DNA of 64,000 nt from Gnetum montanum (lineage: Eukaryota; Plantae; Gnetophyta), in contig MNCI01000775.1 of the NCBI GenBank assembly GCA_015680685.1, positions 140,251-204,250 of the forward strand, given 5' to 3'. Shown in pieces: positions 896 to 64,000 of the stretch. The notes below the pieces were generated by a model that was not told the origin of the DNA, did no database searches, and worked only from the letters and a program-made list of their open reading frames with translations. Position numbers and translations under genes: made by a program. Within the stretch, counting starts at the first letter, position 1. Each line of letters opens with the position of its first letter.

Positions 896-955
896 CTATG
901 CACATGATAACCTCTTGGTCTTCCAGCCATCAACACTCTAGGATGCTATACTTTT

Positions 956-1420: not shown

Positions 1421-4400
1421 ATGAATCCACCTAACACCTCACCTACCACTTTGGGCTTGGAAATAGCTCATGCCCTATAATGTGGGATGGATCACGAGCA
1501 ACCACTTAGCCTAGTACAGATACCACAATAGTCTCTTCAACTGCAACATCAATCACCCAAATGTATGCCTCATGACAAAGAGCAATACAACTTCTTATGT
1601 GCAAAGATCCAAGAAATCCTACCGTTAGATCATCACAAATTTGAGGAAAAGCATGATTTTGAAATTATCCATCAAAATGGAAGGGAGCTCCTTCCTACTC
1701 CTAAGATCATCATTCCACTCACTGAGACATTTCAATGGCTTTTAAACCAACTTATGCAATTGGGTGGGTCAAGAGAATGGGACATAACATCTCACTATGA
1801 TGAACCTCTTCACGATGGGCAAGAGGAGTTAGAATCCCACTCTAAGGGTGGTGGGCTCGTCTATGCCATGGATGCTTAGCCTACTTCCATCTTTCATTCA
1901 CACTAGTCACAATCTTTTGCTTCTTTTGTGACTACCATGACACTGCCACATCCCAAACCATCCTTGATGGGTAGTCATCAAATGTTATCATCATAATAGC
2001 ATGTAGGGCCTTTGAATTCATTCCTCTTTAGCATTCCTTATCAATCCATTCAAGTTGCACAACCAACATCCATGATGCCTACACTACCCTATGTGCATAC
2101 CATGCCCACATCACAACCGTCTATAAGTCCTACTTCTATTACCTCTTCTATACCCATTTTCCCATTAGTAGTAGGCCCAACCTTAGCTTCATGGTGGACA
2201 GTAATGTCTTTTCCTATAGTTCAAGTGTCTCAGATGCCATAATATATGTAGCCCCACATGTATCACGCATCACACATGGTACAACCAACCATGGGACTAT
2301 GGGCTACTACAAAAACTGGACACATAACCATCCCCATGGCACCACCAATGGTAGCTACTCTATTAGCACCACCCATTGGGCTATGGGCTACTCAGGTGGC
2401 ACCACCAGTAGGATCCATGGCAACAACACCTCCAATTGGACTAGTTGCTACACCTATAACACCTCCAATGATGGCTTCTCTAGTAGCTCCACAAGTGGTC
2501 CAATTCGTAAAACCTCCCGTAACACCCCCAAGACCAGACCAAGCCTTTCAGCTTATCTAGACCCTCAGGGATGAAGTTTAGTGGCTTAAAGCTACTAATT
2601 CTAATATGGTCCAAGTAATGGACTTTTACCATGATGATCCAACCAGCCTAGTTGTTCCTCCACTTACAATGCCTCCTAGGGTACAACTCTCCTAGTTCAT
2701 GAAATACAATAAAGAGGGTGATCCAAGTGTCCATTTGATTACCTTTAGATTTGAATCCTTGTTATTACAACCATGGCCACATGCCATCATTTTTGTTTTT
2801 TCCATGTCATTTACTAGTAAGGCTTTGGATTGGTATTGTGCACTTACTTGTGTGTCAATTTCAATGTTAGAAGAATTGTTGAGCCAATTTTTTACTCACT
2901 TCAAGTATAACTTGAAGTTAGAAGTTACCCTAGATCAACTTATGAACATTAAGCAAGAACCATTAGAACCCATTCAAAAATTTATACAACACTAGAGCAT
3001 CACTTTAAATGAAATCCATGAATCGATCATTGAATCCAATTTACTTGCTATCTTTAAATGGTTTGTAAATGATTTCATCAAATCTAAGTTATATTACTTA
3101 ACACCACATTCCCTTAGTCAAGCTTTCATGAAAACAAAAAGTATACAAGATGCAATAGAAGCGAGTGAAGACTTGGCATACATAACTTATAAAAATGCAT
3201 ACGCAAAGAAAGAGAAAGAAAAGGGAAAAGCCACTATGGCCCCTATGGCCAATGAAACTAAGCCCAACAAAAAAAAACCTACCAAAGCACTAAAAACCAC
3301 AGCCACTACTACCAAGCACCAAGCTCTAGCAACATAGGGGTTAGCCAGCCTACAGAGTTGATGGCCATGGCACAAGCTGCACCAAGGCCAAATTTTGAGT
3401 GTAAGGATTGCTCCAAATATACTCCATTACCAATTAAGGTATCAGAGCTATTGGACCAATTGTTGAATGTTGGGCACATTCAATTTAAGCAAATGTCAGC
3501 AGAGGCCCATAAGTAGCATGAGAGATAATATGAACTCCTTCACAACCCCTCTATAGCCACACCTAACAAGCCTCCTATGCCTAAAAATTTTCAACTCAAA
3601 CAATTCTGTAACTCCCACCAATTGTGTGGTCATGATACTAACTATTTCCTAGCATTAAAAGATGATGTTCAACACATGATTGATTAAGGTAAGTTGGTCC
3701 TTGATGAAACCAGTCCTATCTGGCCCAAAAATCAATCGATGAATGTTTACAAAGACCCATTGAATTCCAATAGCGCAAGCTATACTATCAATGCTATTAG
3801 TATTGATGATAATATGGAATTTTCACACAAGCCATTTGTGGTCCATGCACCTTCTCAGAGGGATGAGGCATCAACAACACTTCAGCAACAATCCCTTATT
3901 GTCATTAAGATGTCATCACAAGGGCATGTTACCCCTTTCATAGTAAAGGTCCCTCAACACACTACCCCAACAACACAGGCACCCTTTGTTATAAGGGTAC
4001 CAAAGCATACACATTCACTACTTGTTCAAATTATAGTGGAGGGAACTGCATCGTAGCCTTCTCATCCAATGAAATGTGATGAATGCCTAGCAGATAAGTT
4101 GGCTAGAGAATGCACTATATTAGGCCCCCTAAAGCCCACCGCTTTGTTGGTAGTTCCTATGACCTCATCATCAAAAGACATTGGTATTGGCATACATATG
4201 CAGCCATCACCTCCGAATCCAAAAAGGGCATTGTTCAATCCAAAGCCCCAGCTCCTTGGGAGATTCATCTTTTAGGGCATGTAGAAGAAGTAAAAACTAG
4301 CAAAAAACTAGATAGTGGGTGGGAATTTCTAGATGAACTTTCATAGGCTAAACAAGCTTCGAAACAAAAATATACAATTCTAAGCTTGTATGATTTAATA

Positions 4401-5237
4401 ATGACTTCCACGACCCACCATGAGGCTTTGGTTCATATGCTGGCATCTATCCCTATTAGTGAAAACATGCCAGCTAAGGAGAGAGCCATCCATGCTATTA
4501 TGCTTCCATCTATGGTGTCAAAACCTTGGCCAACTCATCTGGTTTTTCATGAAAAATCCATTAAAGCTAACCCTAGAAAGGGTTAGGTAATAACTACCCC
4601 CATGTTTAGAATGATCCATGTAGGTCATTACAAGATTCTTAGGGTGCATGTTGATGATGGAGCTACAACTAATGTGATCCCATTCCCCATTGTTGACAAG
4701 TTGGGCCTAGTGGATCAAATCAATCCCATGGTGACTTCCTCTTTAAAGTTATTCAACAAGGCACATGTCATGGTTAAGGAAACTATTACTATTAACTTTG
4801 TGGTAGGGGACCAGTTTTCCACCAATGCAAAATTTATCATGGTAGAGGATATACTTGGGTTTAACTTGATATTGGGAAGATCATGGTTAGCTCAATTAAG
4901 GATCTTCTCCTCACCTATACACCAAGAAATCCACCTACACTACATGGGTAGAGAGGTGGTGATCTTCGGTGATGACGTAGCCCCTCAGGCTATAAATAAT
5001 ATAAACGTGGAGTAAGGATCCGAGATAGAAATCTTCAAAGATGTATCACCTATCCATACTGAAATCTGATGTTCAGCAAATCAGTTGGCCAAAACCACTG
5101 ACTTTCATGAAAAAATCATGTGGGCCGAATTTCCCTTTCAAACAAAAGATGATAGCTTAGAAGAATATCATCTCAAGTCTTCCAGACCATACACCTTGCC
5201 TAACCTACATCAGATTAGGAAACAATTGTACAATTAG
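1421..5237 (+). pseudogene. gag: A1 gag-protease, disrupted
   Basis: ORF fragments 1565-1879, 2258-2560, 2699-2995 (KYNKEGDPSVHL...KALDWY), 3128-3337, 3694-4056 and 4602-5015 (VHVDDGATTNVIP...FNLILGRSWL protease). Collinear with A2 58094-61883. Ends ...QIRKQLYN* at 5235-5237. Confidence 0.9.
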
Positions 5238-5359: not shown

Positions 5360-5596
5360 TTGGAATGGTCTTAAACTATTGCATAGCCCACCAAGGCCTA
5401 AAACTAGCAACCCACTCTTTGGAGACTCCACTAGCGATTACCTGAAATGGCCTTAAACTAGCGATGGCCTAAAATGGCCCTAAACTAGCCATGGCCTAAA
5501 ATGGTCTTAAACTAATGATGGCCTGAAATGGCCCTAAACTAGCCATGGCCCAAAATGGCCTAAAACTAGTGATGGCCCAAAATGACCTTAAACTAG
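5360..5596. repeat. 27-bp tandem array (GATGGCCYRAAATGGCCYTAAACTAGC)
   Basis: AAACTA(G) cores at 5455, 5482, 5509, 5536, 5563 and 5590 (exact 27-bp period), with degenerate units at 5373 and 5401. Confidence 0.95.
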
Positions 5597-5779: not shown

Positions 5780-8700
5780 CTATGGGTCTTTACTAGTTTC
5801 TTTATCTGCTGCCTTGCTACGTCCCGCATTCTCATTTGAATCCTACATGAATAAAGAATAATGTAATGCATCAACACGTGAGAAAGGGCAATGCATAAGG
5901 CTCTCACCAAATAAACTATAATAAAGTAAATCTTGGCTAACTTGAGATGGGCCTACATCCATCTTTGGAGGTATTTTGTCAAGGCCAGATGCTAGGTGTT
6001 GCAGAATTTATTCCTCCATTAAATTGGCCCAATCCTCTTCTCCTAGATCAATGTCTACCGTAATCTTTCCTTTTCCACAATTTCCTAGGTAGGTGGCCCT
6101 GGGGAAAAGGTGGCAGTAGTGGTCTTCCTAGAAGGCAAGTTCATCTCTCTCTTAGAAGATTCACTCACCACTACATGCTTTGCAAATTCATCGTAGGCTC
6201 AGGTAGTGCGAATTACATCGAAAAACAACTCATGAGTACAACATTCTATAGATACATCCCTATACCTCTAGCAATAGGCAACACATTCCATCTTATACAA
6301 GTGTTTATGATTTTTCTATAACTACCTCGACTCATATACTTTGGCACTATAATCCTTCCAATCCTAATTTTTCTATGCCAACAAATCCATTTGCAAATGT
6401 TGTTCAATTACTTCACGGGTAGCCTCATTTTTGCCTCATACGGCTGACTAGCATCTAGCATAATCAATTATGGTCATATGCCAACTACCATCAAAAGTGT
6501 CATGAGCCATTAAGAACTCATTTCTTGATTTCAAATCTTCCAACTCAACTGCTTGACTTGCTTTCTCTTTTTCAAGTTTCTGGACCCTTTTCTAGAGGTC
6601 TTCGTTAATGCATCTACACTCCCACAAGAATCATGATGAGTATAGCACACATTTGCTTGCCTCATCGTATATATGACAAGGCACCTTGGCTACCTCTGGA
6701 AGGATTTTAGGCACAACATCGACTTCAACTACCTATTTTGGGTCCCACTTAAGTTGAGAAGTTGTTGTATCACACATAAGGAAGCATTAATTATAAGATG
6801 ATGGCAAAAATAGAATAACATTGAGAAAAATTGTTCTAGTTCAAATGCACCTATCTCGGGGTCTATTTTCCTTAAGCGGTTAATCATATCATCAACTACC
6901 CCTTCCATAAAAGTAAATTTATCTGCGATTTCTATCCATGGCTGTAGGTGAAATGAAGAGGAAGACTCAAGATCTTTAGTAGAATTAGTTCCTACTGTAT
7001 AATAAAGCATGTTAGCATTGTGAAGAAGAGAAAAGGGAAAGTGAGAAGTAACATAAATGATAGTGTAAAGCTCCTACCTAGCAAACCCTCAGGGGTGAGA
7101 GTGGGGGGATCACCCATTGACACATTGTCAAAAAAATCATCAAACTCACTAGCCTCAAAATATAGCCCTTCTTCCTCAAGCTTCCTTAAAAGTGCAACAA
7201 CATCTTAAAATTTCATGTGCCCCTTGGGTTCTGGGGCACAATCTATAAAAGGTTCATCTACAGCAGGGGCTTTCTCCTCTACAGTGCGGGCTTCCTCCTC
7301 TTCTTCCGTAGTAGGGGCCTCTACCTTAGGAGCGAGAACCTCTTCTTCATCTACTAAACATAAGCCAAAGTTAAGATGCTAGCCCAACATATGCATGAAA
7401 AAGAAAAAAGCATCAAGCAAGAGAGCTAAGGAATACTCACCAACAAGCATAGATTGCACATTACGAACTTTGATTCGTAATCTTTTTCCCCTTTCCTCGC
7501 TTATACATGGAGGCTCTTCTACAAGACGAGGCTTCTTAAGTTGTAACTTTGACTTTACTATTTCTGTAATAAGGTGTGTCCACCTAACTACATTTCCTCT
7601 ATTACTAGGGGGGCCTCTCTAAATTTTTCTTGTGCATGAAAAGATGGTCCCACCTAATCCTTCATCGTTATTAAAAAGGACTTCCCACTAGCTTCCGAAG
7701 GGTCTTAAGATCATGTGGTGTAAAATACTTGGTGGATACATGGTTTGGATATCTGGGTATGATCCTATAACACCCAAAACCCATTCTCTTGGACCACCAA
7801 TAATTTGGCACACCATTGCAAACAATCTATAAAAAAGGCAAAATGCACATTGAAACATGTGTTAAGTTTGTCACGAAGCCTAACCATTTCAAACAGCAAG
7901 CCTTCTAAAGGGTAACTAACCCAATTATAACATGTCCCCTCTTCCATAATGTCTCTCATGATCTAGGCTTTCTCTATGCCAATAATCTTTCCTTGGGAAA
8001 GCAACTTGAGAAAGGCATGAGCTCAAAAGATAGGGTAAATCTCTTGGGCTACCTCTAACTTAACCTTGTTCATGTAATCCCTAGCCATGCTTCTATGTTC
8101 CTTCAATGGTTTACATCTTTGCTAGTCTTCTCTCTCATAGGTAAACCATTAGAAGAGATGCTGAAAAGATCTAAAAAAATGTTGTTGGTAATTTCAAGCA
8201 CCACCTACACATTATGGACTCACATGAAAAAGTGATCAACACTTTCTATAAAAGAATCAACAAGGGTGAGCATTTTTGCAGCCAAAATGCTAGGATTTAT
8301 TACCATAAAGAGGTCCATGAGCCTAGCCTCTTAGACATTTTGAACAATTGTGACTGGAGCCCCATTGCATAGCCAATGCTATGACAAATCAACATCACCA
8401 TACTTAAAGAATAAGTTTGCTTCATTACGTCCTAAGGTGATTACCATAACCTTCTTGGACTTGGTCAACACTATAATAATCAAGAAAAAAATTAGCCAAA
8501 CAAATAAAAAAATCAATCAATCAATAGCACATGACAACAAGTGTATAACCTAACTCACTTAGTGTGAATGGTGTAGGGACTGGTGGTATTTTCACTAGAA
8601 TTTCTTCTATGGTGGGTACCCAATGAGACGCCCATTCACCATCTAACCACCCAAGTTCCTCACACTTCAAATAGAATTTAGCATATTTGGTTGGATAGGT

Positions 8701-10398
8701 TTTAAAGTTGGCCAAAATTTTTTCTATGACCCTGACATTCATGTTCTCAGTAGAAGAGAACTCCTATAGGGTTTTTTAAGCCAATGCCAATGCCCCCTCT
8801 TTATCATGGAGGCTATCCTTATCAATTACAAATTTGGAAATCCATAGAACACAATAAGCATTCCAACGTATACAAGATAAATGATACAACATGTCTAAGT
8901 AACTTCATAGGACTCACCTGCTAGCATAGTAGATGGTCCTAGGTGGGTTTTGAAATAAGGTGTCCATATGGTGAGCGATGAACAATGTGTTGTACTTGTG
9001 ATAGCACTTAAATTCAAGCATGGCCCAAATCCAAGATAGGAGTCTCAAGCCTTTTGGACATTGACTTGAGCCCTCTACCCCTTCTTTTTTAGTGGATCCA
9101 TCAATCATGAATCTCAAGATGCCTCAGTTCACCCCAAGTAATAACATTTCAACTAGAACACTTATTGTCTTAGCTGACAGGTGTGACCATACTATTACAC
9201 TAAAACGATGTAGTAGGAACTCCAAAAATTCCCACGTACCTTCTTGGAACTAGACCACCTAGTCCCTTACTTGTGCATGGGGATGGGGACATTAGCCACA
9301 AGGGCACTTAGGCAACTTAGAACCCCTACTAACTCAATTATGATCAATATTGGTTTTAACAAAACCCTACGCAACACAACAAAAACATTAGTTTATAAAG
9401 TTTTTTGAAATATTTTTCTAAGTGTTAGTTACACTACTATATAGTGTAGTAGTCCCTTGTATAAAAAATTTTCTAAGTATGAAACATTACACCCATGATA
9501 CTATCAAGTGAACCAAAATTTTTCCAAATATTCATCCCACAACATAGCAGGTGCGTCACATGCAGTGTGGTGGCTACATCATGCACAACGTAGCAACATA
9601 ATGGCTACACCCTGCACATGTAGCGTGGCAACTACATCATGCGTAGCATAGTAAAATAGTGGCTACACCCCACACATGTAGCGTAGTGGTTGCATCACGC
9701 GTAGAGTAGCATCGTAGCAACATAGTAGCTACACCCTACATGTGCAGTGTAGCAATGTAGCAGCTATGCCCCATGTAGCATAGTGGCTACATTACATGCA
9801 ACATAGCAACTATGTCCCACATAGTGTAACAAGCACCAAAAATGTGACATAGCTCGTTAGTTACGCTATCAAAGGTGACACAACCTAAAGAAAAACATAG
9901 AATGTTTGCAAAGCCTCTACCCTATTCCACTACGTGAAATGTAAGAAAAAACCTCCCCACACATGCTACACTACCCAAAAAATTCTAAACGTTTGCCTAA
10001 AAAAGAACTGTAGCACCCCAATCATAGTAGGGGCAGCGATGGTCAGGATGTCATGACCATGGTGATTGCCACAATGGTAGTAGTAACAACCATGGCATAG
10101 CTATGGTGGTAACCACCATCATGGAAGCAACACCCATGACATAGTTTCCATAGGAGTCATGGCAACCAAGGCATGGTAGCCATGGTGGAGATAGTGGAAA
10201 CAGCATTTTCTCAAAAACATAAACCAAACAAGAACAAATGAAAATATGCAACACAATCAAAGGCAACATAGCAACTTACTAGGTAGATGGTGCCTCCTGC
10301 TGTTCTTTGATTTGTGCTCTAGGGAGCTGTTGCAAGGTGTGCTCACCTTTGTCCACATTGGTGAGACCCTGATGTCTGTGCTCACTCCTATGCACCAT
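5780..10398 (-). pseudogene. Antisense 9-exon accessory gene inside A1 (~1000 aa; PMD-like core, acidic linker, coiled coil)
   Basis: Exons (minus): 10398-10280, 9325-9240, 9152-8918, 8818-8559, 8470-7441, 7350-7078, 6994-6851, 6764-5942, 5842-5780. Introns are GT..AG (two acceptors decayed to AA), several have CTAA(C/T/G) branch sites, and phases are compatible (2,1,2,1,1,1,1,0). Exons 7-8 are homologous to A2. Contains premature stops and at least two frameshifts. Confidence 0.8.
9540..9860. repeat. Degenerate GTAGC/GCTAC-rich tandem repeats in intron 1 of the antisense gene
   Basis: Recurring units such as GGCTACACCC and ATGTAGCG, apparently CpG-decayed GC-rich repeats. Confidence 0.7.
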
Positions 10399-10529: not shown

Positions 10530-10537
10530 TATTTATA
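10530..10537 (-). promoter_or_regulatory. TATA box of the antisense gene
   Basis: Minus strand reads GGGTATAAATAGG, ~130 nt upstream of the predicted ATG at 10398. Confidence 0.6.
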
Positions 10538-10570
10538 CCCTTTAGGGTTACGAGACATGTTACTTTTTCA

Positions 10571-10700: not shown

Positions 10701-10905
10701 ACATTGTATCACATAGATGTACAAAAAAAAATTTAACATTTGATTTAACCCCTCACTCTATAAGCACAATAACAGACCTTAAACTAGAAATTTTGTAACA
10801 TTGCATAATTACCTTGCATACATTTCACTTCATGTTAAGATGATAAGCAGGTATCACTTGATGTCTTTTTTTTTCTTGCTTATTTTTGTAGGAGTTCTTG
10901 GGAAA

Positions 10906-13900
10906 ATGGATACACATGATGACCTCCATTTTCCCTTAATTTTAACAAGACCCCATGGAAGATTTCTGAGACGTTTGAACATAGAGCTTGTAGACTTCGA
11001 ACCACCCCCTTTTGAGACCAACATAGCATCCTTGGACTAGCCCAAATATCTAGTCCAGGCCTTAGACTTAGAAGTTGGTGATGTAACTAAGGACCTTCTT
11101 ATTAAAATTCCCATGACTACATCTAGAAGTAAGGTGAGAATGTTAAAGGTTAGCTCTCTACTAGAGCCACAAGTTCAACAAAATATCTCTAAAGTCCTCA
11201 ATGGTAATATCAAAGTGTTTGCATGGTCATATGAAGATATGTTAGGTTTAGACCCATGCATAATACAACATAATATCATCCTAGATTCATGCGTCAAACT
11301 ACTTAAACAAAAATCTTGCAAAATCAAACTAGAAATTGCATCAGCTGTGCACAATGAAATCACCAAGCTTTATCATGCTAGGTTCATCTAGGCAGTCAAT
11401 TATGCAAACTGGGTATCAAACATCATAGTCATCCCTAAGAAAACTAGGGGCATATGAATTTGTATAGACTTCTGATATTTGAATAAGGCAACCATTAAGG
11501 ATGATTTCCCATTACCCAATATTGACCAACTTGTCAATACGATGGTTGACCATGCTTTACAATCCTTCATGGATGGATTCTTCAGATACAATCAAATTTA
11601 CATAAACCTAGAACATCAACTAGCCACTACCTTCATGACCCCTTGGGGAACCTTCTGTTACATAATGATGCCCTTCACAGGCTAGAAAATTTTGGAGAAA
11701 CATATCAATAAGTAATGACTTACATTTTTAGTGACTATCTTCTAGAATGGTTAAATGATTATGTGGATGATATAGTGGTTAAATCTAAGAAAGCTCCTAA
11801 TCATGAAAATGACATAAACTTGGTCCTTCAACATTTTCATAGGCATGACCTCCACCTCAATCCCAAAGAATGTGTCTTTGGAGTCAAAACTAGATGCATG
11901 TTAGGCTTTGTAATGTCAGAAACTGGGATATGGGTAGATCCCAATAAAGTCAAAGCCATTGTTAACTTAGCACCACCTATGAACCTTAAGGAATTACATG
12001 AGTTGCAAAGCAAGGTACAATTCATATGAAGGTTTATCACAAGGTTAATAGATAAATCGCATCAAATGCAACACTTGCTTAAAAACAGAGTTAACTTTGA
12101 ATGGACAAAACAATGCTAGGAAGCATTTGACAACTTAAAAAAGGAACTTGTTCATCTTCCTACCATTTACCCTCCACAAAGAGAGAAGCCTTTTTAAATT
12201 TATCTTTCCACCTTAGACACATCCATTACTGCTTTGCTCTATCAAAAGAGGGATGATGGTTCTAAAATTCCTATCTACTACCTGAGTCATGTGTTGATAG
12301 CTTATGAAGCAAAATACAATAATGTAGAAAAGAATTGCCTTACTTTAGTATTCATGCTTAAAAACTGGTGGCATTATTTGTTTCGTAGCTAAGTAAATAT
12401 CATCTGCAAAAATAACATACTTAGGGATATTACAACCAATACATACAAAAGTAGTAGGATAGCTCGATGGAAATCCATAACTACAAAATTTGACCTACTC
12501 TACGTAGCAAGTCATCTAGAAAGGGTCAAGCAATAGCTACGCAACTTATGGCTTCACCCATCAATGACTAGGCAATAATAGAACCTAAATTTCCAAACAA
12601 ACATGTTAGTAGCATAAGCCTAGTACCAATAGATTTCGAAGCCATTCTACATTTTGATGATGCCTCAACAACACAAGGTGGCAATGCCACTGCTATTCTC
12701 ACATTTTCCTCCAAAGAGATCCAACCTTTCGCATATCACTTCATGTTTATTTGTACAAACAATGTAGTAGAATATGAGGGTCTCCTTAGGGGCATTCTAG
12801 CAACTCAAGAGTTAGGAATCCAAAACTTAGCAATTCAAGGAAATTCTCAATTACTCATTAACTAAGTCATAGATATCTATGCCTGTAAGGCACAACATTT
12901 GCAAACTTACTATGATTTGGTGAAATACTTACTAAATAAGTTTGCAACCCTAGATGTGTAATATGTACCCTATAATAAAAACACCATAGTCAATGCATTA
13001 GCCACCTTAGCAAACACATGTTCAGTACCTTGCCTACTTCCATAGTGAGATGCACTAACCTTATCATTCATATAGCAAACATCATTTCTATAAGTGTGGC
13101 ACATGCCCAAGAATGGTATGATGATGTTAAGACATACCTCCAACATGGTGTGCCTCCACATGGCCTAACACCTACCCAAAAGGACACAATACGAAAATAA
13201 GCTTGGTAGTATGTCCTTGTAGGAGATGAAACTTTATGTCAACGATCTTATGACAGAATATTGCTAGCTTGTGTTAGTGAGGATGAAGTACAAAAAATTG
13301 TTGATCAAGTCCATGAGGGACTGTGTGAAGGGCACATAGCTCCAAGAGCTATGGTGGCAAAAATTAGCCGACTCAGCTACTACTGGACTTATATGGAGCA
13401 TGATTGTGTCTCTAAGGTTAGAAAATGTGATGTATGTCAACACAATGAGAACCTCATACATGTATTGCCTACTAAATTTCATACCACAAAAATCACATCA
13501 CCTATTCAACATTGCAAACTAGACATCATAGGACCCATAACGCCCAAGTCTTCCAGAAGGCATAGCTTCATTATCACTACAACTAAGTACTTCACTAAGT
13601 GGGTAGAAGCTATTCCCCTTAGGAAGACTACATCTCAACAAGTGTGCAAATTCATCTTGGACAATATAGTAACTTGATTCGTCCTTCCTATGACTATCAT
13701 TATAGAAAACTGGCCCCAATTCAATAGCATGGAAACTAAAACCTGTTGCAAAAATCTTGGTATTAAACATTCTTTCTCATCACCATATTATTCCCAATCC
13801 AACGGCCAAGTAGAAGCTACCAATAAAGCTATTTTCAACCTTCTAGAAAAGATGCTTAGTAGTATTAAGTGATGATGGCATGAGCAACTCCTTTATGTGC

Positions 13901-14348
13901 TATGGGCTTATCACACAACATGTAGTACTACCACAGGTAAAACCTCATATAGTCTTGTATACGGATCTAAAGTGGTGTTACATCTTGAATTGCAGGTCCC
14001 ATCACTCTGGATGATCCTCTTGAATTTTATGGATGAGGCTCAAAACAATGAGTCAAGAATCACTAATGTTGATTCTATAGAGGAGGAGTGCATCCAAACA
14101 CTTAACCATATTGAGTGGTATCAAGACAAGCAATGGCAAAAACATCATTGCAATCTACACCAACGTCTGATCAAAAAAGGGGATCTAGTCCTCAAGGTAG
14201 TTCGCTAGCCCATGAAGAAATTCTTAGCCAACTAGAAAGGGCCCTTTTGGTCACAAAGGCATATGAGAATGGAGCATTCAAACTGGTTGACTTAGATGGC
14301 AACGAGTTACCAAATCCTATCAATCATCTGTACCTAAAACCCTACTAG
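10906..14348 (+). pseudogene. pol: A1 RT-RNaseH-aRH-integrase, disrupted
   Basis: RT: FAWSYEDM, DDFPLPNID, SFMDGFFRYNQI, YVDDIVV, LNPKEC. aRH at ~12640-13020 (LHFDDAS, CTNNVVEYEGL, GNSQL). INT: HEGLCEGH...CDVC, LDIIGP, YFTKWVEA, SNGQVEATNK. Ends INHLYLKPY*. Confidence 0.95.
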
Positions 14349-14390
14349 ACCTAACATGCAATGTCATGTTGGATATAAGCCAAGGTAAGA

Positions 14391-14790
14391 AGATCATCCG
14401 CTATGATATAAAACTGGCACAAATCATCCTCTATGACGTAAAACTAGCACAGATCATCTGGTATGACATAAAACTGGCACAAATCATCTTCTATGATGTA
14501 AAACTAGTACATATCATCCACCATGATATTAAACTAGCATAGCATGTCTTTGGGCCATGACATGAAATTGGCACCCATAGAATGATCTGCTATGACCTTA
14601 AACTGGCCATCCCCCATCCGCTATAATATTAAACTAGCATAGAGGTCTACTAGGACCTTAAACTAGCATATCATGGTCTGCTAGGAACATAAACTAGCAT
14701 AGCATGGTCTACCTGGACCTTAAACAAGGACCACAGTTTGCTAAGACTTTAAGCTAACACATCAAATGATATACCAAGATCTAAAACTAG
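14391..14790. repeat. ~30-bp tandem array after integrase (ARATCATCYGCTATGAYRTAAAACTRGCAC)
   Basis: AAACT(G/A)G cores at 14411, 14441, 14471, 14501 and 14531, then degenerate units to ~14790. Confidence 0.95.
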
Positions 14791-16273: not shown

Positions 16274-16286
16274 AAAGAGGGGATAG
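16274..16286 (+). promoter_or_regulatory. Polypurine tract of A1
   Basis: AAAGAGGGGATAG directly before TG at 16287. Confidence 0.8.
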
Positions 16287-18523
16287 TGAAACACCATCAA
16301 TTTTTGGCTCTCATGATTCAGCACAGTCCTAAAACTTGGGTGAAACCTCTCCAAGTGTGGTGTTATGTTGGGCCATGTAGATAGTATGACACCCTGGAAG
16401 TCATAATGCTTACAAAGATTTCTCTCAGCCTATCTACTACGTTCCTTGGCATAGTCAACAAAGCACTCAATTACAAGGCTAGTATGCCAAAATAGAGCAT
16501 TGGGGGTGGACCATATAGTTTGAAAAATTTTCTATTTTTGACCTAGGATGCTATGCTCTATTGCACAACATAGACAGCATAGCAAGCCATGAGATGCTGA
16601 AATTTTTCCAAGTGTTCGGCTAGATGTAGAAGGTGCATTTGAGCAATTCTTTAGCTTTCAAGGATTCCTATCCTATTAAATCCTTGGATTATGATCAACA
16701 TGACATGGAAAAATAACAAAAATTTCATGAAATTCATCCTAATTTGGGTGCTACGCTAAACAATGTAGCACATCATAGCAAGGTGCCAACATATCAAAAT
16801 CTTTTCTCAAGTTGTTTTGACATGAAAAATGCATTTGACCATTCTTTAACCTCTAAGCCTACTTGTCCCACTTTGCCCTTAGAGCATGACCAAGGTCCCA
16901 TGGCAAAGCATTGCAAGTTAAGTTAAAATTCATCCAAAATCAGGTGCTGCATTGTGCTCCGCTACACAACATAGCAGACATATCAAGGTCAAATGTGTCT
17001 CAAGAATGAAAATAGGAGGTCTGAGGCTCTTTCACATGAAAAGCATGATGGACAATTGTTGAAGTTGCTTTCCTTGCTAGGTCTTAGAGTGGTGCTCTCA
17101 GTTTTTAACAAAATTTATTAACAAAGGTGTGGTATGCTGTGTAGCATAGCACAGCATAGTGAGCTAGTGTTTACACTACTTCACTATGCTGGATAGCGTA
17201 GATGGTGTAACACTTAAGAAGAAGCCTTAGGAAATCTCCAAAAGTTTCAAAAATCATCATCAATTATCATTTCTACTCCAACATCTCCTTGATAGCCAAG
17301 ATCAATAGTTTTCTTTGTTTCTTGCACCACTTTTTGATCCCCAAACGTTTTCCCTACGATTGAGCCTACTTTGAAAAGAAGACATAGTCCTAGAGCATAA
17401 GCTCCAATTTGCATGTATTGTAAGTATTTTTTATAGAATAAGGTGATTCTTTAGATTCTAGCACATGCAGTATGGGCAATATGGTCACAGCTTGGTAGAT
17501 TTGTGGTTCCTGTTCCTGTTCCATTCAGAGTAGCACATCCACGTAGCACCACATCTTGAGCATAGCACACTAGTGTGGCACATTCACATTCATGCTACAT
17601 GGGACCCACAACATGTGGCATCCAAACCACGTCTCTTCCCCCAACCTTGGATTTATAAATACCTTAGTAAATGAAATTGTAAGGGTTATCTTTTGCAGTG
17701 GCCTTCAGGAGAAGATTGGCGAGCAGAAGGTTGATGAGCAGCAAATCTTAGCATTAGTCTTCCAAATCCTTTTTCCACTCCCACGCTTGAATATGACACT
17801 TTCCTAGTCACAACATAGTAATTTTTAGACCAAAAAGCATCAACACCATATTTGCAACACTCTAGAAAGTGTAACCATATTGCCTTGCTACCCAACTATT
17901 TCTATCTATGTTGCACACCAATTGTACACATCATTCAATTAAAAGCTGCATCCCCCAATCTTGGGGTGGTGAATTTCTTGATCCACACTCTCATTTCATT
18001 CTTTTCCTATAGCATTTTAAATTGTTATCATATCTTATTCTTTTTTTGTATTTCCATATGCACCCACAAGCATATTCTCTCACTATTATACATGTTGCAT
18101 GCCTACTTATGTCAAACTCTTATACATGACACCTAGAAATCATTATCTACAAATGGTTATTTGACACCACGTAAGTCCCTGATTAATTGACCAAACCACT
18201 CAGGGCACCTCATTTCTGTGTTCTCCAACATGACCCTCCAACAAACTTAGGATTATGCTATGCACCTGATAACCTCTCAGTGTTCTAGCCACCGATGTTT
18301 TCAGATGCTAGAAAATTGGCCATGGAAGTGTATGCTACACTAACCATGCCAAGGAGCATAGTTGGTAAACTTAGAAAAAGTTTGCAAAAAAATAGGACTT
18401 CAAGTGTGCTACACTATCTATGCTACAGGGTGTAAAAATAGACTTAGAAAAAGTTTGCCCAAGTTTTGACACTTAGACAAATCTGTCATTGAACTACAGA
18501 AGCCCAAAATTGGTGGTGTTTCA
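16287..18523 (+). mobile_element. 3' LTR of A1 (2237 bp)
   Basis: TGAAACACCATCAATTTTTGGCT...AGCCCAAAATTGGTGGTGTTTCA forms a 21/23 terminal inverted repeat. TATAAATA at 17654. 18171-18312 is homologous to the A2 LTR (57706-57850), and 18258-18310 to 896-948. Confidence 0.85.
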
Positions 18524-54700: not shown

Positions 54701-57037
54701 CCAAACAAACTAATAGTTTGAAAGATTTCAAAGGTTCCAAAGAAGTTCTTGAATATAATGCTAGTCCTTCATTAGGAGAAGAATAGAAGAAGCTTCTTGA
54801 GTTTGGAACAAGTAGTGGAGTAAAAACCAAAATGATAAGAAGATCATCCCTTCTATCTAGTTTATTAGTCTATAAGAAAAAGTCAAAGAAACTTAAGCGT
54901 TCAATGATCAAAGGAAATTCTAATAAGATGGAAAATCCTTGGCAAAGAGTTACATCATTAGGATTTCATAACTATACTGATATTTCTAAGTTAGTTTACA
55001 AATATTTACTTGAGCTTTTTATTCCTAGAAAAGCTTACTTGGTTGAAGAGTACATTCACTTATTTGAGTTATCCTTACCTCATTCAAATATTCAACACCA
55101 AGATCAAGAATGTATGTTGTTTGTAGTAAATTTAAAGAATATGGCTTAGATTTGATATTCAAACATGTAAAGAAATAGTATTACATGTTCAAATGATATG
55201 AAAAGTCTTTTCTTGGCCTACTTTGGTAATTAATTAGATCAATAGCAACTGTACTATGGGCTAGTACAAGCTAAGTAGGGAGTCAAAGAGTCAATTGGAA
55301 ATTTTAGTATTAAGTTTCAATGAATTTTTGGGCTTTTTCAAAGACAATATAGACCATTAGATGAAATGCATAAAGATACTTATCTTAAGGCTATGAATCC
55401 CAATATTTCAATTTGGTTAAGGAGAACTCCAAACTTCATAATGCTGAATGACTACTTTAGTAAACCTATATAGTTAGAAACACAATTGAACTTGAACAAT
55501 GAAGAGTTTATTACAATTCAAAAAAGAGAAGAGTAAATGATTATTCTTATGCAAGATTTTGCTTAACTTAAAGCATTACTAGGGCCATCTCATGTTAAGG
55601 TAGAGAAAGAGCATGAAAACAAAGAATCTAAACAAGGACAATTAATGAGAGACTTGTACAACAAGGTAGTGAAACTACAAAAAGCTTATGTAAAATTTCA
55701 AATCAAGGAAGAAAGGAAAAACATAAAACATAAGCATTAAGACACTAAGTTAGTAGAAGATGAGGATGAGACTAATATTTTTATGTCTAGCTTCCTTGAT
55801 ATTGAATCTAATAATGATCTATCTAGTGTTCATTATGCAAGAAAATCTTCTAATAATGGATCTAGTAATACTTCTTCTCTAACAAGTTCTAAAGAGGATA
55901 TATCATTAGATAAAGGATGTAATAACAATAAATAAAATGAACATAATTATTGATCAAAAGAAATGTTAACTACTTCTAGGCCTATGAATGTCATTCTTGA
56001 TCCATCTACTAAGAGAAATATTTTTGAACCAAGTGGAAGAGAGAAAAATAAAAGTAAAAAAAAATAAAGGAGGGAAAAGTACTTAAAATTAGTCTTTTAA
56101 TAAATGGATGAAGAAACCAAGCTTTTACGAAAATGGAGAATATAATTTTATTGAAGATATTAAACATGTCAAAGCTAAAATTAGTATATATCAATTGTTA
56201 CAAATAGGTGATTATGAAAAAAATGCTTGAGAGTTCATTTAAGGTAAAAGAAGAGTTAGAGAATCAAAATTAAGCTACATGTTTAACATTGACAAAACAA
56301 CAAAAACTACCTATGATCGTACTCCTAACAGGGAAGCTCCTTCTTTTCTATTGATAATGAAGTTAAAAGACAAATATCTTCATAATTATATGGTTGATTC
56401 TGGAGCTACATCTAGTATTATGCCATTGTCCATATGCAAAAAGCTTGGTTTCATTCTTCTAAAATCCAATAAAAATATTGTTCAAGTGGATAAAAGCAAA
56501 CTGAAAATTGTGGGTTAGCTGCCAAGTATTTTATTAGAAATTTCTTCTAAAAACTATATCAAAAGAAGACTAATAATTGAAGTGGTGGACATACCATATT
56601 CACATAGTCTTTTGTTGAGTAGAAGTTGGAGTAAGAACTTTTCTGGTTATATATCAACAAATTATTCTCATATGTCGGTACCTTGAAAAGGTGAGTGGAA
56701 TCAAATATACATATACAGTAAACCTTTGATGAATGAAAACATTACTTTAAATGGGATGAATAAAGTCATTGAAATAAGATCTTTTGAAATAAGAATTTTC
56801 CTACTTCAAGAAGTTGATAATTTGGAAAAAGAAGAATCTCAACATGAGAGCAAATCGTAGCGATACTTTGATGCTTCTTGTAATTCTAAAGGTGTAAAAG
56901 ATAAAATAGTTATACTAAAAGATGATTCCCAAAAAATATTTAAGGTAACTCATTTATCTTTCCCATGTACTAATAACAAGGCTTAATATGAAGCCCTAAA
57001 TATTGGAATTAAAGTAGCATTGGAAAAAGAAATCAAG
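51744..57037 (+). repeat. Diverged duplicate of ~36772-42105 (L1 flank, B LTR, PBS, gag-PR and aRH start)
   Basis: Collinear homology, e.g. ORF 37329 vs 52253 (KVNKAPNGNKGK), LTR 53045-54569, PBS 54577-54594, YMVDSGATSSIM. N at 53044 sits where the (TA)n tract is in copy 1. Confidence 0.9.
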
Positions 57038-57850
57038 AAGGACAATAACAGAGAGACAGAGACACCTATCGTCAACCTATCGTCAACCTATAAATATCCT
57101 AGTTGGCGAAGAAAAGAGAAGGAGATGAAAAAGAACAAAAAAGAAGGACAATAACAGAGAGATAGAGACAAGAGACACTTGGCTTGAGCATTGGCAGTAA
57201 GAGCGATTACCCCTTTGGCGAAGACACAAGTTTCTCCATTGGTGATTATCGGCAGTTCCGAGCAAAGACTACCGAAGGCAAAAGGAGCATATCAGAGATC
57301 CAGAGATCATCTGGTGTGGTTTGTGAGTTTCTATTGATCATAAGTAGTTGATCAATAGACATTAGAACTTGACCTTCCTTACATCCCTTCTCCGGCCTAC
57401 AAGGTAGATCGGATTCTATTCTTCACTTCTGCTCAGACAGTTTGCTTATTTCTTGTTGCTTTGTGTATGCTTTATACAAAACAATCAGGGTCTCCCCAGT
57501 GTAACTTGAATACATAAAATACTTATTTTCCTAGGTCAAACTATAGATCTGGCAATCACGCGTTTTTCTCGTGTCTGATTCCTGTTGTCGTGTTAACGCT
57601 ATCATCGTCGTTACCATTCATCTACATCGCCTTTCTCTCATTTTGCGACTTGCCGAATCATATCATTCCACAAGATATTCGTAATCTTCATCGGTTTACT
57701 GATTAGTAAGTCCCTATCTGATCGACAAGACCGTTCAGGGCACTGCGGATTCTTTTTTCCAACATAGCCCTCGCGCGGATCCGTGGTTAAAACTGTGTAC
57801 ACGGGATTTTGTTTGGTATTTTCCAGCTGCCGACATTTTCCGTCGTTACA
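57038..57850 (+). mobile_element. 5'-truncated 5' LTR of element A2
   Basis: TATAAATA at 57089. Ends ...CGTCGTTACA at 57850. The last ~150 bp are homologous to 18171-18312 and the last 30 bp to 921-950. Confidence 0.8.
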
Positions 57851-57856
57851 GTTTTC

Positions 57857-57874
57857 TGGCGCTAGAAGGAGGGC
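57857..57874 (+). promoter_or_regulatory. PBS tRNA-Asn (A2)
   Basis: TGGCGCTAGAAGGAGGGC, 18 nt, 6 nt after the LTR end. Confidence 0.9.
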
Positions 57875-58093
57875 CTAGGCTTTGATTCGTATTTTTTCCG
57901 GTAGCCCTGTTAGTGATTTATACCCAAAACTGTAAATGTAATACCTCTAGGGAAGTTTATGGTAAATCGCGTGGTGTAGATCGGTCACAGGAACGATTCC
58001 TCTAGAATCCTGCAGGGTAGAAAGCCTATATGCGATCTTTTTGTTAGCCGCTTACTAGATCTGGTCATTTTTCACAGCTAATCCACTCGATCA

Positions 58094-61000
58094 ATGGATT
58101 CCGTATACACAACCACAACCGCCATGGTCGCCGCTATTGTGGGTGCCACATCTGTGAACCCTATCGCTGTCACCAGACCAGCTCTTGGTGCAACGGGACC
58201 GCAGGGACCATCGCATAGGTCATTGAGAATGCAGGGCAAAGACCCTATTTTCATGATCGTGACCCCTGAAGAATACAACTTCATCTACGTTAAGATCCAG
58301 GTAAAGCTTGCTCTTAGTCGAGCCGAGATCGAAGCAAAAAGAAACTTTGAGATGATTCATCGAGGAGGTCACGATTTCACTCCAACAGCCTATGACATTA
58401 TCCCTTTGACCGAACATCAACATGAAATTATAACACAGTTGGTCATGGCCAAAGGCCAAGCTTCACGGGCTACAATGGAGCCCCAGAATGGGGAGGAGGA
58501 AGAGGATGAATTGGCAGCCTAGTCGGAACATTCGTTCCATACTCTGAGCCCCCACACGTATGTAAATCCCTTGTTTCCTTTCAACGGAGAGGCCGCTCCT
58601 CTTGACCCAGCCATGACCACGTAGACGCATTTCCCTGTCATTCCACAATCCATTGCACATCCATCTGGGTTGCAAATGCAAATACCCCACAACCACATGG
58701 GGGCGGTTTCATCGCCGCGTGTACTCAGCATTCTGGCGGTGGTTCCAGCGACCACCGCGTCCCATTTCATCCCACAGATCCAACCCCAAACCATGTCCAC
58801 AACTCGTCTGATCCAAACTTTTTTGCTACCACCCCCTCCAACCCGGCAGATCACCACTGTTGTGCAGCCACAGATACCTGTCCACTAGCCTGCCGTGAGT
58901 CAGTGGACTTACCCCGCGGCACAACACAACCAGTCCACGGTATACGGTGTGCAACCCTTGGTGGCCCCCGCAACACATATTCTGTCGATGGTTCCACAAT
59001 ATCCTCATCCTTATCCCACGCAGAAGATGGAAACTAACCTCTCTTCCCAAACCGGTGGGTGGTGGTCTTCACAGGCCCCCCTGGCTGCAGGGATGCCCAC
59101 CCCACCATCTACTGGCCAAACCATTCCACTGTTTCCCCTGCCTGGCACGGCTTTTCCAGGTCAGCCCCTGCTCGTCATGCATAGGCACCTCCAGCAATGG
59201 GTCTGGATCAAGCTTTTCTACTGATTCAAACCCTCACCAAAGAGGTTAGGCATATTAAGGTTGCTGGGTCAGACACAGTACAAATCATGGATTTTTACCA
59301 AGATGATCCTATCAGCTCAGCTGTCCCTATGTTGTCGTTGCCAACAGGGATGTCCTTACCTCATTTTACCAAGAATAATGGGGAGGGGGATCCCAACACT
59401 CACTTAGTCACCTTTAGATCTAAATCCTTGTTGTTATAACAGTGGCCACACACGATCATCCACGTCTTTGCTATGTTGTTGACAGGGAAAGCTCTAGACT
59501 GGTACCGAGCCCTCCCATGCTCTTCCATCTCAACTTTAGAAGAGATACTGACACAAATCGTGACCCACTTTAAATACAACTTAAAGCCAGAATTCACGTT
59601 GGATCAGCTTATGGGGGTGAAACAAGACCTTCTCGAACCAGTCCAGAGGTTCATACAGCGTTGGAATGCTACCTTGAATGAAATCCGTGAGCCGATCACG
59701 GATTCACATCTACTGGCTATATTCAAAGGAGTAGTCAATGACTTTATTAAGTCAAAGTTGTACTATCTTTCCCCCAACTCTTTACATCAGGCCTTCGCTC
59801 AAGTTAGAAGCATCCAAGATGCTACGGAGGCTAGCAAAGACCCGGCATATGTTGCCTACAAGAATGCACACAACAAGGCTAAGGATAAAGGCAAAGCGAC
59901 AACAACGATAGTGGCTGCGCTGGCTGAAGGCGTAAAGAACAAGAACAAGAAGGCACCTACGGTGCCTCCTAAGGCTACGGCTGGTGCAGGAACCAGCCAA
60001 GACATGGTAGCTCCTAAAAAGGCCCCCCAGCCAAAACCAAACTTTGAGCATAAAGATCGCTCAAAGTACACAGCCCTACCTGTAAAGCATTCAGAACTGT
60101 TGAAAAAACTGTTAGGGGCAGGGCACATTCAACCTAAGAAGGTGTCCGAGGAAGCTCTGAAGTGTCACAGACATCATTGTGAACTACTGAAGAACCCTTC
60201 TTTAGCCTTACCTAACGAACCACCAGTTCCAAGATCTTTCAGGCTGGACCGTTTTTGTGACTACCACCAGTTGTGTGGTCACGATATGAATTACTGCTGG
60301 GTGTTGAAAGACGACATTCAACGTATGTTGGATGATGGTTTACTCAAGTTAGACAGCAGTAACCCGACACGCCCAGAAAACCAAACATTGCACGTATATA
60401 AGGACCCATTGAACACAAACGATGCTCCTTATATAATCAATGTGGTGAGTACGGATAGTGAGAGGAGAGGAATGCCAAAACAACCTTTTGTTTTGTGTGA
60501 GCCTGCCAGCTCACAAAGGGGGGCAACCATTTCATCGGTAGCTAGTGGTGTCTCTAGGCCACCCTTCATTATACGGGCACCTTCTCAGATACACCCTCAG
60601 TCACGCAGCAACAGACAAGCCACGGCTTCATCCGCGCCCATGCCTAGGGCGCCCTTCATTATCAAGATGCCAAAACCACAGGCTGCTCCTCTCATGCAGG
60701 GGCAGACCTCTAACCAGAATAGCCAACCATCACCTCCCAAGCGAAATGGAGAGGACATACCTGTTAACACAACGAAAGACCATTCTACGCTCGGCTTCCC
60801 TAAACATAGGCCCCTGGCCTCTGCACCTTCGTCTCTGCCTCAGAAACAGGATAAAGGCACATAAACGCAGCCACCTTCTCTTGGCAAGAAAGAGGACAAC
60901 CCTTCGACCGACACTGTCCTACCTCGAGAGATCTATCTCTTGGGTCGGATGGAAGAGGGCAAGGGAGGCAAACAACCTAGCCGAGAGAAGGACCTCCTCG

Positions 61001-61883
61001 ATGTGTTTATGCAGGTTAAATAGGCTTTAAAACAAAAAAAAATACAACGCTGAGCCTCTATGACCTGCTTATGACATCCCAAAAACACCGTGAGGCTATG
61101 GTCCATATGCTGACATCCATACCTGTGGATGAAAGCCTACCAACAGAGGAGGAAGCGATCCATGCAGTCATGTTTCCTTCCGAAGCTAAGCAACCCAAGC
61201 CCACCTCACTGACCTTTCATGATGAGTCCATCAAAGATGACCCTGAGAAAGGTCAGGTAACCACTGAACCCATGTTCATCACTATTCGGGTCGGTTAGTA
61301 CCTGATCCGGAGAGTACATGTGGACAACGATGCCGCTGCAAACTTCATTCCTTATCCCATCGTGGATAGGTTGGGTCTGGTCGACCAGATCATTTCCACG
61401 ACAACAACCTGCGTAAAGTCGTTCAATGGAGCAAGGGTTCAAGTCAAGGGGACGGTGTGTATCGAGTTTGTGGTAGGGAAGAAATTCCCAACGGATGCCA
61501 CATTCTTAGTCGTTGAGGAGATTCTTGGCTTCAACTTGATCCTAGGGAGGTCCTGGTTAGCCCAGCTGAGGGCGGTTTCATCACCGATACATCAAAAAAT
61601 ACACCTACCTTACGCAGGAGGGGAGGTCGTGATACATGACGATGAAACCACCCCCAGAACTGTCAACAACATTGAGGAAGAACAGGATTTGGAGATAGAA
61701 GCCTTGGATGATCAGACCCATCTCCAAATCCCTCAACAAACTGACATCAATGACGACAATCTCACCTGGGCCAACCTGCCATTTCCGGACGGCAGCGTAG
61801 AGGAGTCAAATCATAAGTCCCCCCGCCCTTACGCAACGTTCAACATAAAGGCCATTAAGAGACAGTTGCGTATTAATGGTTGA
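58094..61883 (+). pseudogene. gag: A2 gag-protease (few stops and frameshifts)
   Basis: ORFs 58094-58522, 59473-60864 (KALDWYRAL; CDYHQLCGHDMNYC knuckle), 61071-61298 and 61320-61883 (VDNDAAANFIP...FNLILGRSWL). Confidence 0.92.
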
Positions 61884-62116
61884 ACAATGGCCCTTGTGCA
61901 CGTCATCACATCTTTACACGTTCTTACAGCTTACACTTAGCAGTTTGTTTTACTTCATCCATTTTTACGCTATATTCGCTTTCGGTTTTTACGCTAGTCA
62001 TTTCTTACATCATTCCGCTTCTTTCACATATGCTATCCATGCTTTTACATCATTTTAGCGTAATTACGCAGGATTATATCCACTACCACCATTTACGTTC
62101 TCTGTATTATGTAGTA

Positions 62117-62243
62117 GGCCCGCAATGGCCTTAAACTAGTTGTGGCCCGCAATGGCCTAAAACTAACCATGGCGCACAATGGCCTAAAACTAGCTTCCAG
62201 ATTACGCAAACACTCATGACGGCCCACAATGGCCTAAAACTAG
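62117..62243. repeat. 27-bp tandem array (GGCCCRCAATGGCCTWAAACTAG), counterpart of 5360-5596
   Basis: Cores at 62133, 62160, 62187 and 62237. Confidence 0.9.
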
Positions 62244-62438
62244 TAATTCCACGCCGTCATACCTTAACTTAGGCAAAACCGTTAACAACTACACTTATGC
62301 TTTGTAGATAAAAACGCAAAAGACACAAAGACAAAAAATATATAACACTTAAAATTGTCACAAAATCTTATCGCTAGTCTTTCAGTCATCCCAGTATCAT
62401 TGTTAGCAACAATCAATAAATCCATGCGTAAATCACAA

Positions 62439-64000
62439 TTACGCATCTCCTCTGACGCCACTGTCACTGCTATCTCTTAATTTTGGCTCCAGTCCAAATA
62501 AATCGTCCTCTAGTAGGCCATCTCTCCTAGGAAGTATTCCATCATGAGGAATCCCCTCTTCATGAGGTCCCTGCTCTGGTATCGGCTCCACGGGAGGATG
62601 CTCTTCATCGTTGCGTTCTTCCTCTTGTGCTGGCTCCTCAGCTTGCTCATCTCCTTTGTCCTCTGTTGGTACCTAGATACAGAAAACATGTTAGCAAGAC
62701 CAAGACTTAACAACATAATTAGAAAATGTAGACTTAGTCATGCATGAACTTACTTTCGATGGCCCTGCTTCTGCAGCAAAGGGAAGCTTGTCCAGGCCAG
62801 CCCACATGCGCTCCATGATTTCATCCTCGATCAGATCAGACCACACATCATCTCCCAAGGCAGCTCCAGCCTTCACCTTCCCTTTCTTTATGCTAGTCCA
62901 GCAAGGTGGGTCCAGGAAGAATGTAGGGACTATTGTCTGCCCCCCAGGGAGAGTCATCTCCCTTTTCGGGGATGCACTTACAGTCACCTGCTCTTCGAAC
63001 CTCTTGAAGGCTTCTAAGGCTCCGATGACGTCCAGGAAAACTTCCAGGGATTGAGCCTTGATGGTAGAATCACGATAAAGTTTACGATAAGCGATGCTTT
63101 CTCACTTATATAGATGTTTATGGTCCTTTTCCTTTTGCCCCCACTCTTGCACGCTTGCACAATAGTCCCTCCAATCCTAGCTTTTCTGAGCTAGGAGCTC
63201 TATCTGCATCTGCTGCTCTATCAACGCCCGACTGGTTCGCACGCTATTTTTGATGGCGGTCCAATAATAGGAGTAGTCGATAACAGTGGTACGCCAGTCT
63301 TCATCGCCCATCTCCCGCGCCTATAGGAATTCGCACCGTGATCTTAGGTCTCCGACCTCTTTGGTTAGCAACTCAATCCTCTGCTCTAACCTCTGTAGCC
63401 TTTTCCATAGATTTTCATTTATGTCCCTACCATCCCATAAGGAGCGTGTCGAGCGTAACGCACATTTACGCATTTCCTCATAAATGTGACGTGGCATGGC
63501 TACCCCATCAGATGGAGGCTCCACTGTGTCCAAATCAATGGGCTCCGTAGGATACCATCGGAGGTGAACTCCTAACAGAAATAAAATCATCAATATTGGT
63601 GACACATTACCACTGTATAATATCGCAAACTCATTACATCCGTAACATACCAACTCCAGGTTCGACGTGCTCGAGACGCTCAATCATATCACTGACAACA
63701 CCTTCCATGAAGGCAAACTTGTCAGGAAAGTCTCTTCACGCTCTGCTCACAGCGATGGACGTGGATACATCCTCTTCTCCTGTAGCGTAATCAAGTTAGA
63801 AACTTTAATTATTAATAGAATTCTACACAAATTTCTAACACATTTATTACCTCTTCCGGTAATAGTGGCGACTTCGCCAACATCTTTCGCCCCATTTTCC
63901 TCTTCACGCACATGAGTCTGTGCATCACTGGTTCTAATAGCTGGGGCCTCCTCACGCACAGGGGTCTATGTGCGGCTCACGCTAACAGCTGGGGCCTCTC
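62439..64000 (-). pseudogene. Last four exons of the antisense accessory gene in A2 (runs off the window)
   Basis: Exons >64000-63851, 63779-63651, 63571-62754 and 62672-62439. Introns 63780-63850 (GTAATA..TACAG), 63572-63650 (GTATGT..GTTAG) and 62673-62753 (GTAAGT..TCTAG); two have CTAAC branch points. The spliced frame is continuous to TAA at 62439-62441, apart from a few transition-type stops. Confidence 0.85.

Follow-up and report, generated by a model that had tools for sequence, protein, structure and literature searches.

Here we report a family of Tat/Ogre-like Ty3/gypsy retrotransposons in which a third gene, encoded on the minus strand and interrupted by introns, lies directly behind gag and protease. 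Both copies of the family, A1 and A2, in the 64-kb window (the whole stretch of DNA that was analysed) carry this gene, and a codon comparison between them supports purifying selection. On balance we favour a selected gene whose product would be an accessory factor with the element's own DNA as its target. Antisense extra open reading frames (ORFs) are themselves already known in Tat elements, where they lie behind pol; what appears to be new here is an antisense gene with many introns between protease and reverse transcriptase (RT). No antisense multi-exon gene at this position was found in the literature searched, as far as titles, the openings of abstracts and selected passages go. The origin and function of the extra ORFs of plant Tat retrotransposons are treated as an open question in PMC7264820 and PMC11963269.

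A1 spans about 900-18330 (∼17.5 kb) with both LTR ends seen, and A2 begins near 57040 and continues past the window end at 64000 (Table 1). The two copies share 54-61% protein identity in gag and protease, and in both of them a stop closes the protease frame, behind which come a 27-base tandem array and then the 3′ end of the minus-strand gene. In A1 the antisense cassette occupies 5.7 kb (5237-10891) and separates protease from RT; a Pfam search of pol downstream of it found RT, RNase H, archaeal-type RNase H (aRH) and integrase, in that order. The A1 antisense gene lies within both LTR ends of its element. A2 was inserted into an older element and the left end of its 5′ LTR is uncertain, with positions 57706-57772 of this LTR being 71% identical to 18171-18238 of the A1 3′ LTR. 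A2 gag, at 61% identity to A1 gag, matches Retrotrans_gag (PF03732) with an E value of 1.4e-4, which is below the curated cut-off, and the A2 protease has a protease-like motif recognised by eye and no Pfam match. An A-run at 61034-61045, between A2 gag and protease, differs in length from contig to contig of DNA run X1, and gag and protease may therefore form one frame in other copies. CpG observed/expected is 0.13-0.32 in A1 (900-18330) against 0.49-0.64 in A2 (57040-64000), and since A1 is far more CpG-depleted we take it to be the older insertion.

Table 1. Features of the two element copies and their antisense gene (positions in the window)
Feature	Position	Strand	Remarks
A1 gag + protease	1500..5236	+	degenerate; stop at end
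A1 27-bp tandem array	5360..5596	+	T(T/A)AAACT(A/G)G, 4 exact matches
A1 antisense gene	5780..10398	-	nine predicted exons; ∼1,050 codons; splice signals and T-rich introns
A1 predicted exons 1-5	about 10398-10280, 9366-9271, 9173-8918, 8817-8559, 8470-7441	-	
A1 predicted exons 6-9	7350-7078, 6991-6851, 6761-5942, 5842-5780	-	
A1 introns 6, 7, 8	7077-6992, 6850-6762, 5941-5843	-	86 nt, 89 nt, 99 nt
TATA box candidate of A1 antisense gene	10531..10537	-	from sequence
Candidate sense acceptor	10860..10891	+	pyrimidine tract and AG, phase 1 with pol frame; ATG at 10906
A1 pol	10892..14350	+	frameshifted; PF00078, PF17919/PF17917, PF13456, PF17921, PF00665 in order
A1 30- and 31-bp tandem arrays behind integrase	14391..14790	+	different units, core motif T(T/A)AAACT(A/G)G, 9 exact matches
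A1 3′ LTR end	18171..18330	+	18258-18310 matches 896-948 at 75%; LTR left end unplaced
A2 5′ LTR	57040..57850	+	ends in CA before PBS-like site; read ends stop at 57850
A2 primer-binding-site (PBS)-like sequence	57857..57874	+	nearly the same as A1 956-973
A2 gag	58095..60864	+	broken into pieces; 474-codon open stretch 59440-60864
A2 protease region	61035..61883	+	stop codon at end; 54% identity to A1 4365-5228
A2 27-bp tandem array	62117..62243	+	T(T/A)AAACT(A/G)G, 3 exact matches
A2 exon 9 (last)	62439..62672	-	77 codons and stop; acidic, proline-rich; not conserved with A1
A2 intron 8	62673..62753	-	81 nt, phase 0, GT..AG
A2 exon 8	62754..63571	-	818 nt, three stops; heptad-like stretch at ∼residues 50-85 (crude heptad count)
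A2 intron 7	63572..63650	-	79 nt, phase 1, GT..AG
A2 exon 7	63651..63779	-	129 nt, one stop
A2 intron 6	63780..63850	-	71 nt, phase 1, GT..AG
A2 exon 6, 3′ part	63851..64000	-	low-complexity; cut by window end

The pol of A1 has the RT-RH-INT series with an additional aRH that characterises the Tat clade, to which A2 is assigned by gag and protease similarity only. Within Tat, two features agree with lineages IV-VI: aRH is placed between RH and INT, and the protease is encoded next to gag and away from pol. For these lineages PMC4408406 gives the pol order RT-RH-aRH-INT, a protease on the gag side and, in Ogre, an intron between protease and RT; PMC6317226 likewise places an aRH between RH and INT in Ogre/Retand (Tat IV-VI). 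Named matches of the A1 integrase are Papaver and Fagus proteins at 34-47%. One 658-residue protein (P0001) is 69% identical to the A1 integrase and has aRH followed by integrase, but it starts with a Pol_BBD domain and is probably a chimeric call. With Ogre (Tat IV) the present family shares large size and a gag-protease unit held apart from RT-RH-aRH-INT by non-coding DNA. The Ogre spacer, however, is a spliced intron, whereas here the 5.7 kb spacer holds an antisense gene and its removal from the sense transcript is a proposal. Moreover, the PMD-CC extra ORF of Ogre is described as sense and 5′ of gag; in A2 only ∼240 bases separate the PBS from the first gag-side ATG, and no PMD match was found at 58100-58520. 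A closer parallel is offered by the antisense extra ORFs of other Tat elements, in lineages III, V and VI, which according to PMC4408406, PMC7264820 and PMC11963269 encode PMD or PMD-coiled-coil proteins (Tat III, V) or TRP28-coiled-coil proteins (Retand, Grande gene23, RIRE2). These resemble the gene described here in their Tat-type gypsy host, antisense orientation, family-wide occurrence, own promoter (Grande), coiled-coil part and adjoining tandem repeats; they differ in lying between pol and the 3′ LTR and in being described as ORFs, as opposed to a gene between protease and RT with eight predicted introns, and the A1/A2 gene has no PMD or TRP28 Pfam match. In the degenerate A1, no ORF of 150 codons or more is present at 14350-18330, the region between pol and the LTR end where Retand has its antisense TRP28 ORF. 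Outside plants, the brtn gene of Boty elements in Botrytis, as presented in PMC7264820, is also an antisense accessory gene in an LTR element, although it belongs to another kingdom and another protein family. ORF-based surveys that set a minimum of 250 codons or 600 bases would overlook a nine-exon gene of this kind or break it into pieces.

A sequence-only reading of this stretch had paired three peptides of A2 with counterparts in A1, all of which are indeed present on the minus strand, and had placed three introns at equivalent positions with the same phases. The phases hold, being 1, 1, 0 for introns 6-8 in both copies. Equivalence of position is fixed by aligned codons at three junctions only, namely the donor and acceptor of the middle intron and the donor of intron 8; the remaining three match by order and phase only because the exon 6 and exon 9 pieces do not align between A1 and A2 above shuffles (z 1.1 and -1.2), and at the place in A1 equivalent to the A2 exon 8 acceptor there is no AG, the acceptor having been lost. 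The T content of the introns is 39-44%, against 16-30% in the flanking exons. The earlier remark that the intron sequences do not visibly align was borne out by comparison with shuffles (global z -0.6, 0.7 and 0.0 and local z -0.6, -0.6 and -0.1 for introns 6-8), whereas exons 7 and 8 align clearly, with z values of 9.4 and 11.6. Exons 1-6 of A1 are predictions from a single decayed copy. Neither copy of the gene is intact: A2 exon 7 is broken by one stop (63738) and A2 exon 8 by three (63323, 63179 and 63104); in A1, exon 8 contains 12 stops and a frameshift, and an acceptor has been lost. On the opposite strand, a TATA-like sequence (10757-10766, plus strand) stands back to back with the A1 antisense promoter, ∼130 bases before the pol acceptor (10848-10891). 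Two further tandem arrays, one of a 58-base unit in intron 1 (9557-9711) and one of a 28-base unit upstream of the antisense TATA box (10569-10704), are without the nine-base motif discussed below.

Codon constraint carries the main argument for a selected gene. Over 282 stop-free exon codons the two copies share 45% protein identity, with nucleotide identities of 0.61, 0.71 and 0.33 at codon positions 1, 2 and 3; pN is 0.335 and pS 0.856, giving a pN/pS of 0.39 (bootstrap 0.33-0.45) from an alignment of two copies only that was guided by protein, which favours low pN. Because a pS of 0.856 is saturated, dS cannot be corrected and we give pN/pS alone; the true dN/dS is below this value. The same comparison yields 0.24 for the gag core, 0.30 for the gag C-part and 0.35 for protease, and 0.99-1.24 for four of the five other reading frames of the antisense exons. 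Taken together, these ratios support the conclusion that the codons of the antisense gene are under purifying selection, with a constraint like that of gag and protease, and the codon alignment indicates that the gene has been selected over a span long enough to saturate silent sites. The sequence-only reading had proposed an integral family gene under selection, not a random capture, with dN/dS well below 1, and this proposal is supported by the pN/pS of 0.39 together with a repeat depth like that of gag (see below).

Three other readings of the locus meet their main difficulty in this comparison. The conserved frame could be a sense-strand ORF and the introns chance AT-rich spacers, a reading helped by a pN/pS below 1 in the mirror frame (0.54) and by the failure to find spliced reads among the RNA data described below. 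That frame has 15 stops in A1 and 12 in A2, the latter against three in the minus-strand frame, and is without splice signals; the mirror frames of gag and protease likewise give a lowered ratio, and the GT..AG ends, T-rich composition and matching phases all belong to the minus strand in both copies, so that we give this explanation hardly any credence. Very improbable, too, is a role for the unit as antisense RNA, or as a spacer tuning the Gag to Pol ratio, in which the protein would be incidental. Antisense RNA control has been discussed for such elements (PMC7264820) and the cassette does interrupt gag-pol, but it is the first and second codon positions of the minus-strand frame that are constrained. 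Somewhat better, though still improbable, is the idea that a host or DNA-transposon gene (Mutator-like, VANC-like) was inserted once in an ancestor and has been passively carried since. The eight predicted spliceosomal introns and the TATA box do point to an origin at the DNA level, which we consider likely; VANC genes have introns, and both copies here are dead. Passive carriage nevertheless does not fit a gene whose silent sites are saturated and whose introns are randomised while its replacement sites are kept as in protease, nor a depth equal to that of gag; the codon comparison largely refutes it. No terminal-repeat-like inverted pair was seen around the antisense gene among the 25 longest of 48 inverted pairs.

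For the integral, selected gene that we prefer, a mechanism of four steps can be proposed, each with its own degree of confidence. Very probably the gene would be transcribed from its own minus-strand promoter and its mRNA spliced, with the introns surviving reverse transcription of the genomic RNA, in which they face backwards. The spliceosome would not recognise minus-strand introns in the sense genomic RNA, so that they would be copied along with it, a reverse arrangement that is also used by retrotransposition reporters (PMC12786077). We lean slightly towards a second step in which some of the sense transcripts lose the whole 5.7-kb cassette as an Ogre-type intron, allowing Pol to be made, while unspliced RNA is copied. 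A sense acceptor can be suggested in A1 (Table 1) and a candidate donor, a phase-1 GT, is found at 61870 in A2, with none at the equivalent place in A1; possibly pol has its own promoter instead of an Ogre-type intron. The third step, for which we see the chances as evenly balanced, is that the protein resembles the products of the PMD-CC and TRP28-CC extra ORFs in Tat elements, having an acidic tail and a coiled coil along with a PMD/DUF1985-like domain. The fourth is tentative: the protein may bind arrays of the motif T(T/A)AAACT(A/G)G in the element's non-coding DNA and counter silencing, as VANC does for VANDAL transposons. A motif-binding accessory factor is proposed because VANC contains DUF1985, resembles PMD structurally and binds short motifs in tandem repeats.

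The protein itself offers a lead rather than a result. Searches with A2 exon 8 returned no relatives at E 0.001 among 1.84 billion representatives and, in a word search, no match among 751 word-sharing candidates of 149-476 residues; A1 8085-8474 matched none of 68 longer candidate proteins, two A1 pieces had no match among PDB sequences, and A2 exon 9 had no Pfam match. A Pfam search of the antisense gene in all frames of the heavily decayed copy gave no PMD (PF10536), DUF1985 (PF09331) or TRP28 match. In the ESM Atlas, a 65-residue open piece of A1 exon 5 (7768-7962) scored 0.94-0.97 with three plant hypothetical clusters, 0.92 with a DUF1985 set (23% of members), 0.87 with a PMD set (20%) and 0.93 with one bacterial set, but its recognition value of 2212 is below the 2300 needed for a high score to count, and the DUF1985 row shares 156 of 256 features with the piece, fewer than the 170 that true members of a family typically share. 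DUF1985 is a domain of VANC and is structurally like PMD; a DUF1985/PMD identity of A1 exon 5 is weakly suggested by the Atlas model. An A1 exon 4 piece had no Atlas match, and a single-sequence structure model of the antisense protein reached a pLDDT of 34.8 and is unusable.

The arrays provide the second lead towards a DNA-binding role. The nine-base motif has 19 matches in the window, of which 14 fall in A1 and three in A2; these 17 are all non-coding and all on the plus strand, grouped in four arrays except for one that stands alone at 10779 near the A1 antisense promoter. The only two matches outside A1 and A2 fall in an exact 820-base head-to-tail duplication (26471-27290 / 27292-28111, 100% identity) that is either a very recent event or an assembly artefact. 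A shuffle control (19 against 4.67) is not independent, as the motif was chosen after inspection. The 27-bp arrays of the two copies are 80-84% identical (z 31.8), in contrast to their flanking DNA, which does not align, and we therefore regard the array as constrained. Tandem arrays of unknown function are common in Retand elements, and VANC targets short motifs that recur with a common orientation within tandem repeats (PMC5735166). The VANC system of the Mutator-like VANDAL transposons is comparable in having an intron-containing accessory gene of a mobile element, the DUF1985 lead, and a motif of 8-9 bases whose copies all face the same way in non-coding tandem repeats (PMC5735166). It differs in belonging to DNA transposons, the present element being a retrotransposon whose gene has no DUF1985 or DUF287 match, and in that its binding was demonstrated, while binding here is a proposal.

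In its fullest form, the proposal is that of an LTR retrotransposon with a VANC-like, sequence-specific anti-silencing system, in which a nine-exon gene of the DUF1985/PMD fold would lie backwards inside an Ogre-type gag-pol intron and its protein would bind a nine-base motif amplified in several unrelated tandem arrays; we consider this composite picture, taken as a whole, unlikely. Equally doubtful is the alternative that the gene is integral and selected but that its protein acts on the particle or the RNA (in nuclear import, packaging or cell-to-cell movement), with the arrays serving a host factor or acting in RNA. What both copies share is a coiled-coil-like exon for which no relatives were found, the link to PMD/DUF1985 is weak, and functions of this sort have been proposed for antisense ORFs (PMC7264820). 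Set against this, the sole domain lead points to plant PMD/DUF1985 clusters, and the core motif recurs in arrays of unrelated units on both sides of pol as well as next to the antisense promoter. Should a VANC-like system prove true, antisense ORFs and tandem repeats would have one function in common in Tat elements; the conserved motif arrays make it directly testable whether accessory proteins of retrotransposons behave as VANC does.

Reads from other copies bear on the prevalence of the gene. From DNA run X1, 63,194 contigs were placed on the window at 82% or more identity; their summed depth, which is not a copy number and comes from pieces too short to link exons to gag, ranges over 12,968-61,170 in the antisense exon bins and 4,498-62,590 in gag-PR. 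As these ranges are similar, the exons appear to be as repetitive as gag. Three further organisms contain up to 32-38% of the sampled sequence words, and a search by protease alignment confirmed related loci in none of 414 metagenome and none of 120 viral stretches. RNA runs with the species label of X1 gave few reads, and since nearly all of these are <95% alike they come from other copies. Among 365 such reads from four runs, at low depth, none is spliced at introns 6-8; four joints were present in this set, all within the tandem array, and among 15 listed of 40 joints in a first read set none lies at an antisense intron. Two groups of 11 and 7 reads run from exon 8 ten bases into intron 7 before diverging, and because they follow the exon into the intron they are taken as unspliced. 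Poly-A loose ends at 62310 were considered as the antisense 3′ end and rejected, since they fall at an A-rich stretch and are on the wrong strand for the gene's tail. In X15, the RNA reads of gag and of the antisense exons lean the same way.

Two of the four A2 stops are missing from the RNA reads of other copies (27 of 27 and 17 of 18 reads, with few independent starts). Of 30 read differences classed in exons 7 and 8, taken from the best-supported 40 of 208 rows, 16 fall in exon 7, with 11 at third positions and 10 silent, and 14 fall in exon 8, with 3 at third positions and 11 altering a residue; these replacements are probably A2's own decay.

The window is repeat DNA of plant-like character, and the rest of it contains other mobile elements. 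Two copies of another gypsy family, 83% identical, lie at 41300-43250 and about 56300-57040; this family has aRH upstream of RT (PF13456 then PF00078) and a protease motif recognised by eye, and PMC6317226 gives the aRH-before-RT arrangement for club-moss and gymnosperm TatI/TatII. These neighbouring elements hint at a host outside the angiosperms; should it be a gymnosperm, fern or lycophyte, the Ogre-like layout described here would reach beyond flowering plants. The RT of the neighbouring gypsy element is interrupted by an insert of ∼6.5 kb, bounded by direct repeats (43246-43827 / 49146-49734) that are 83% identical.
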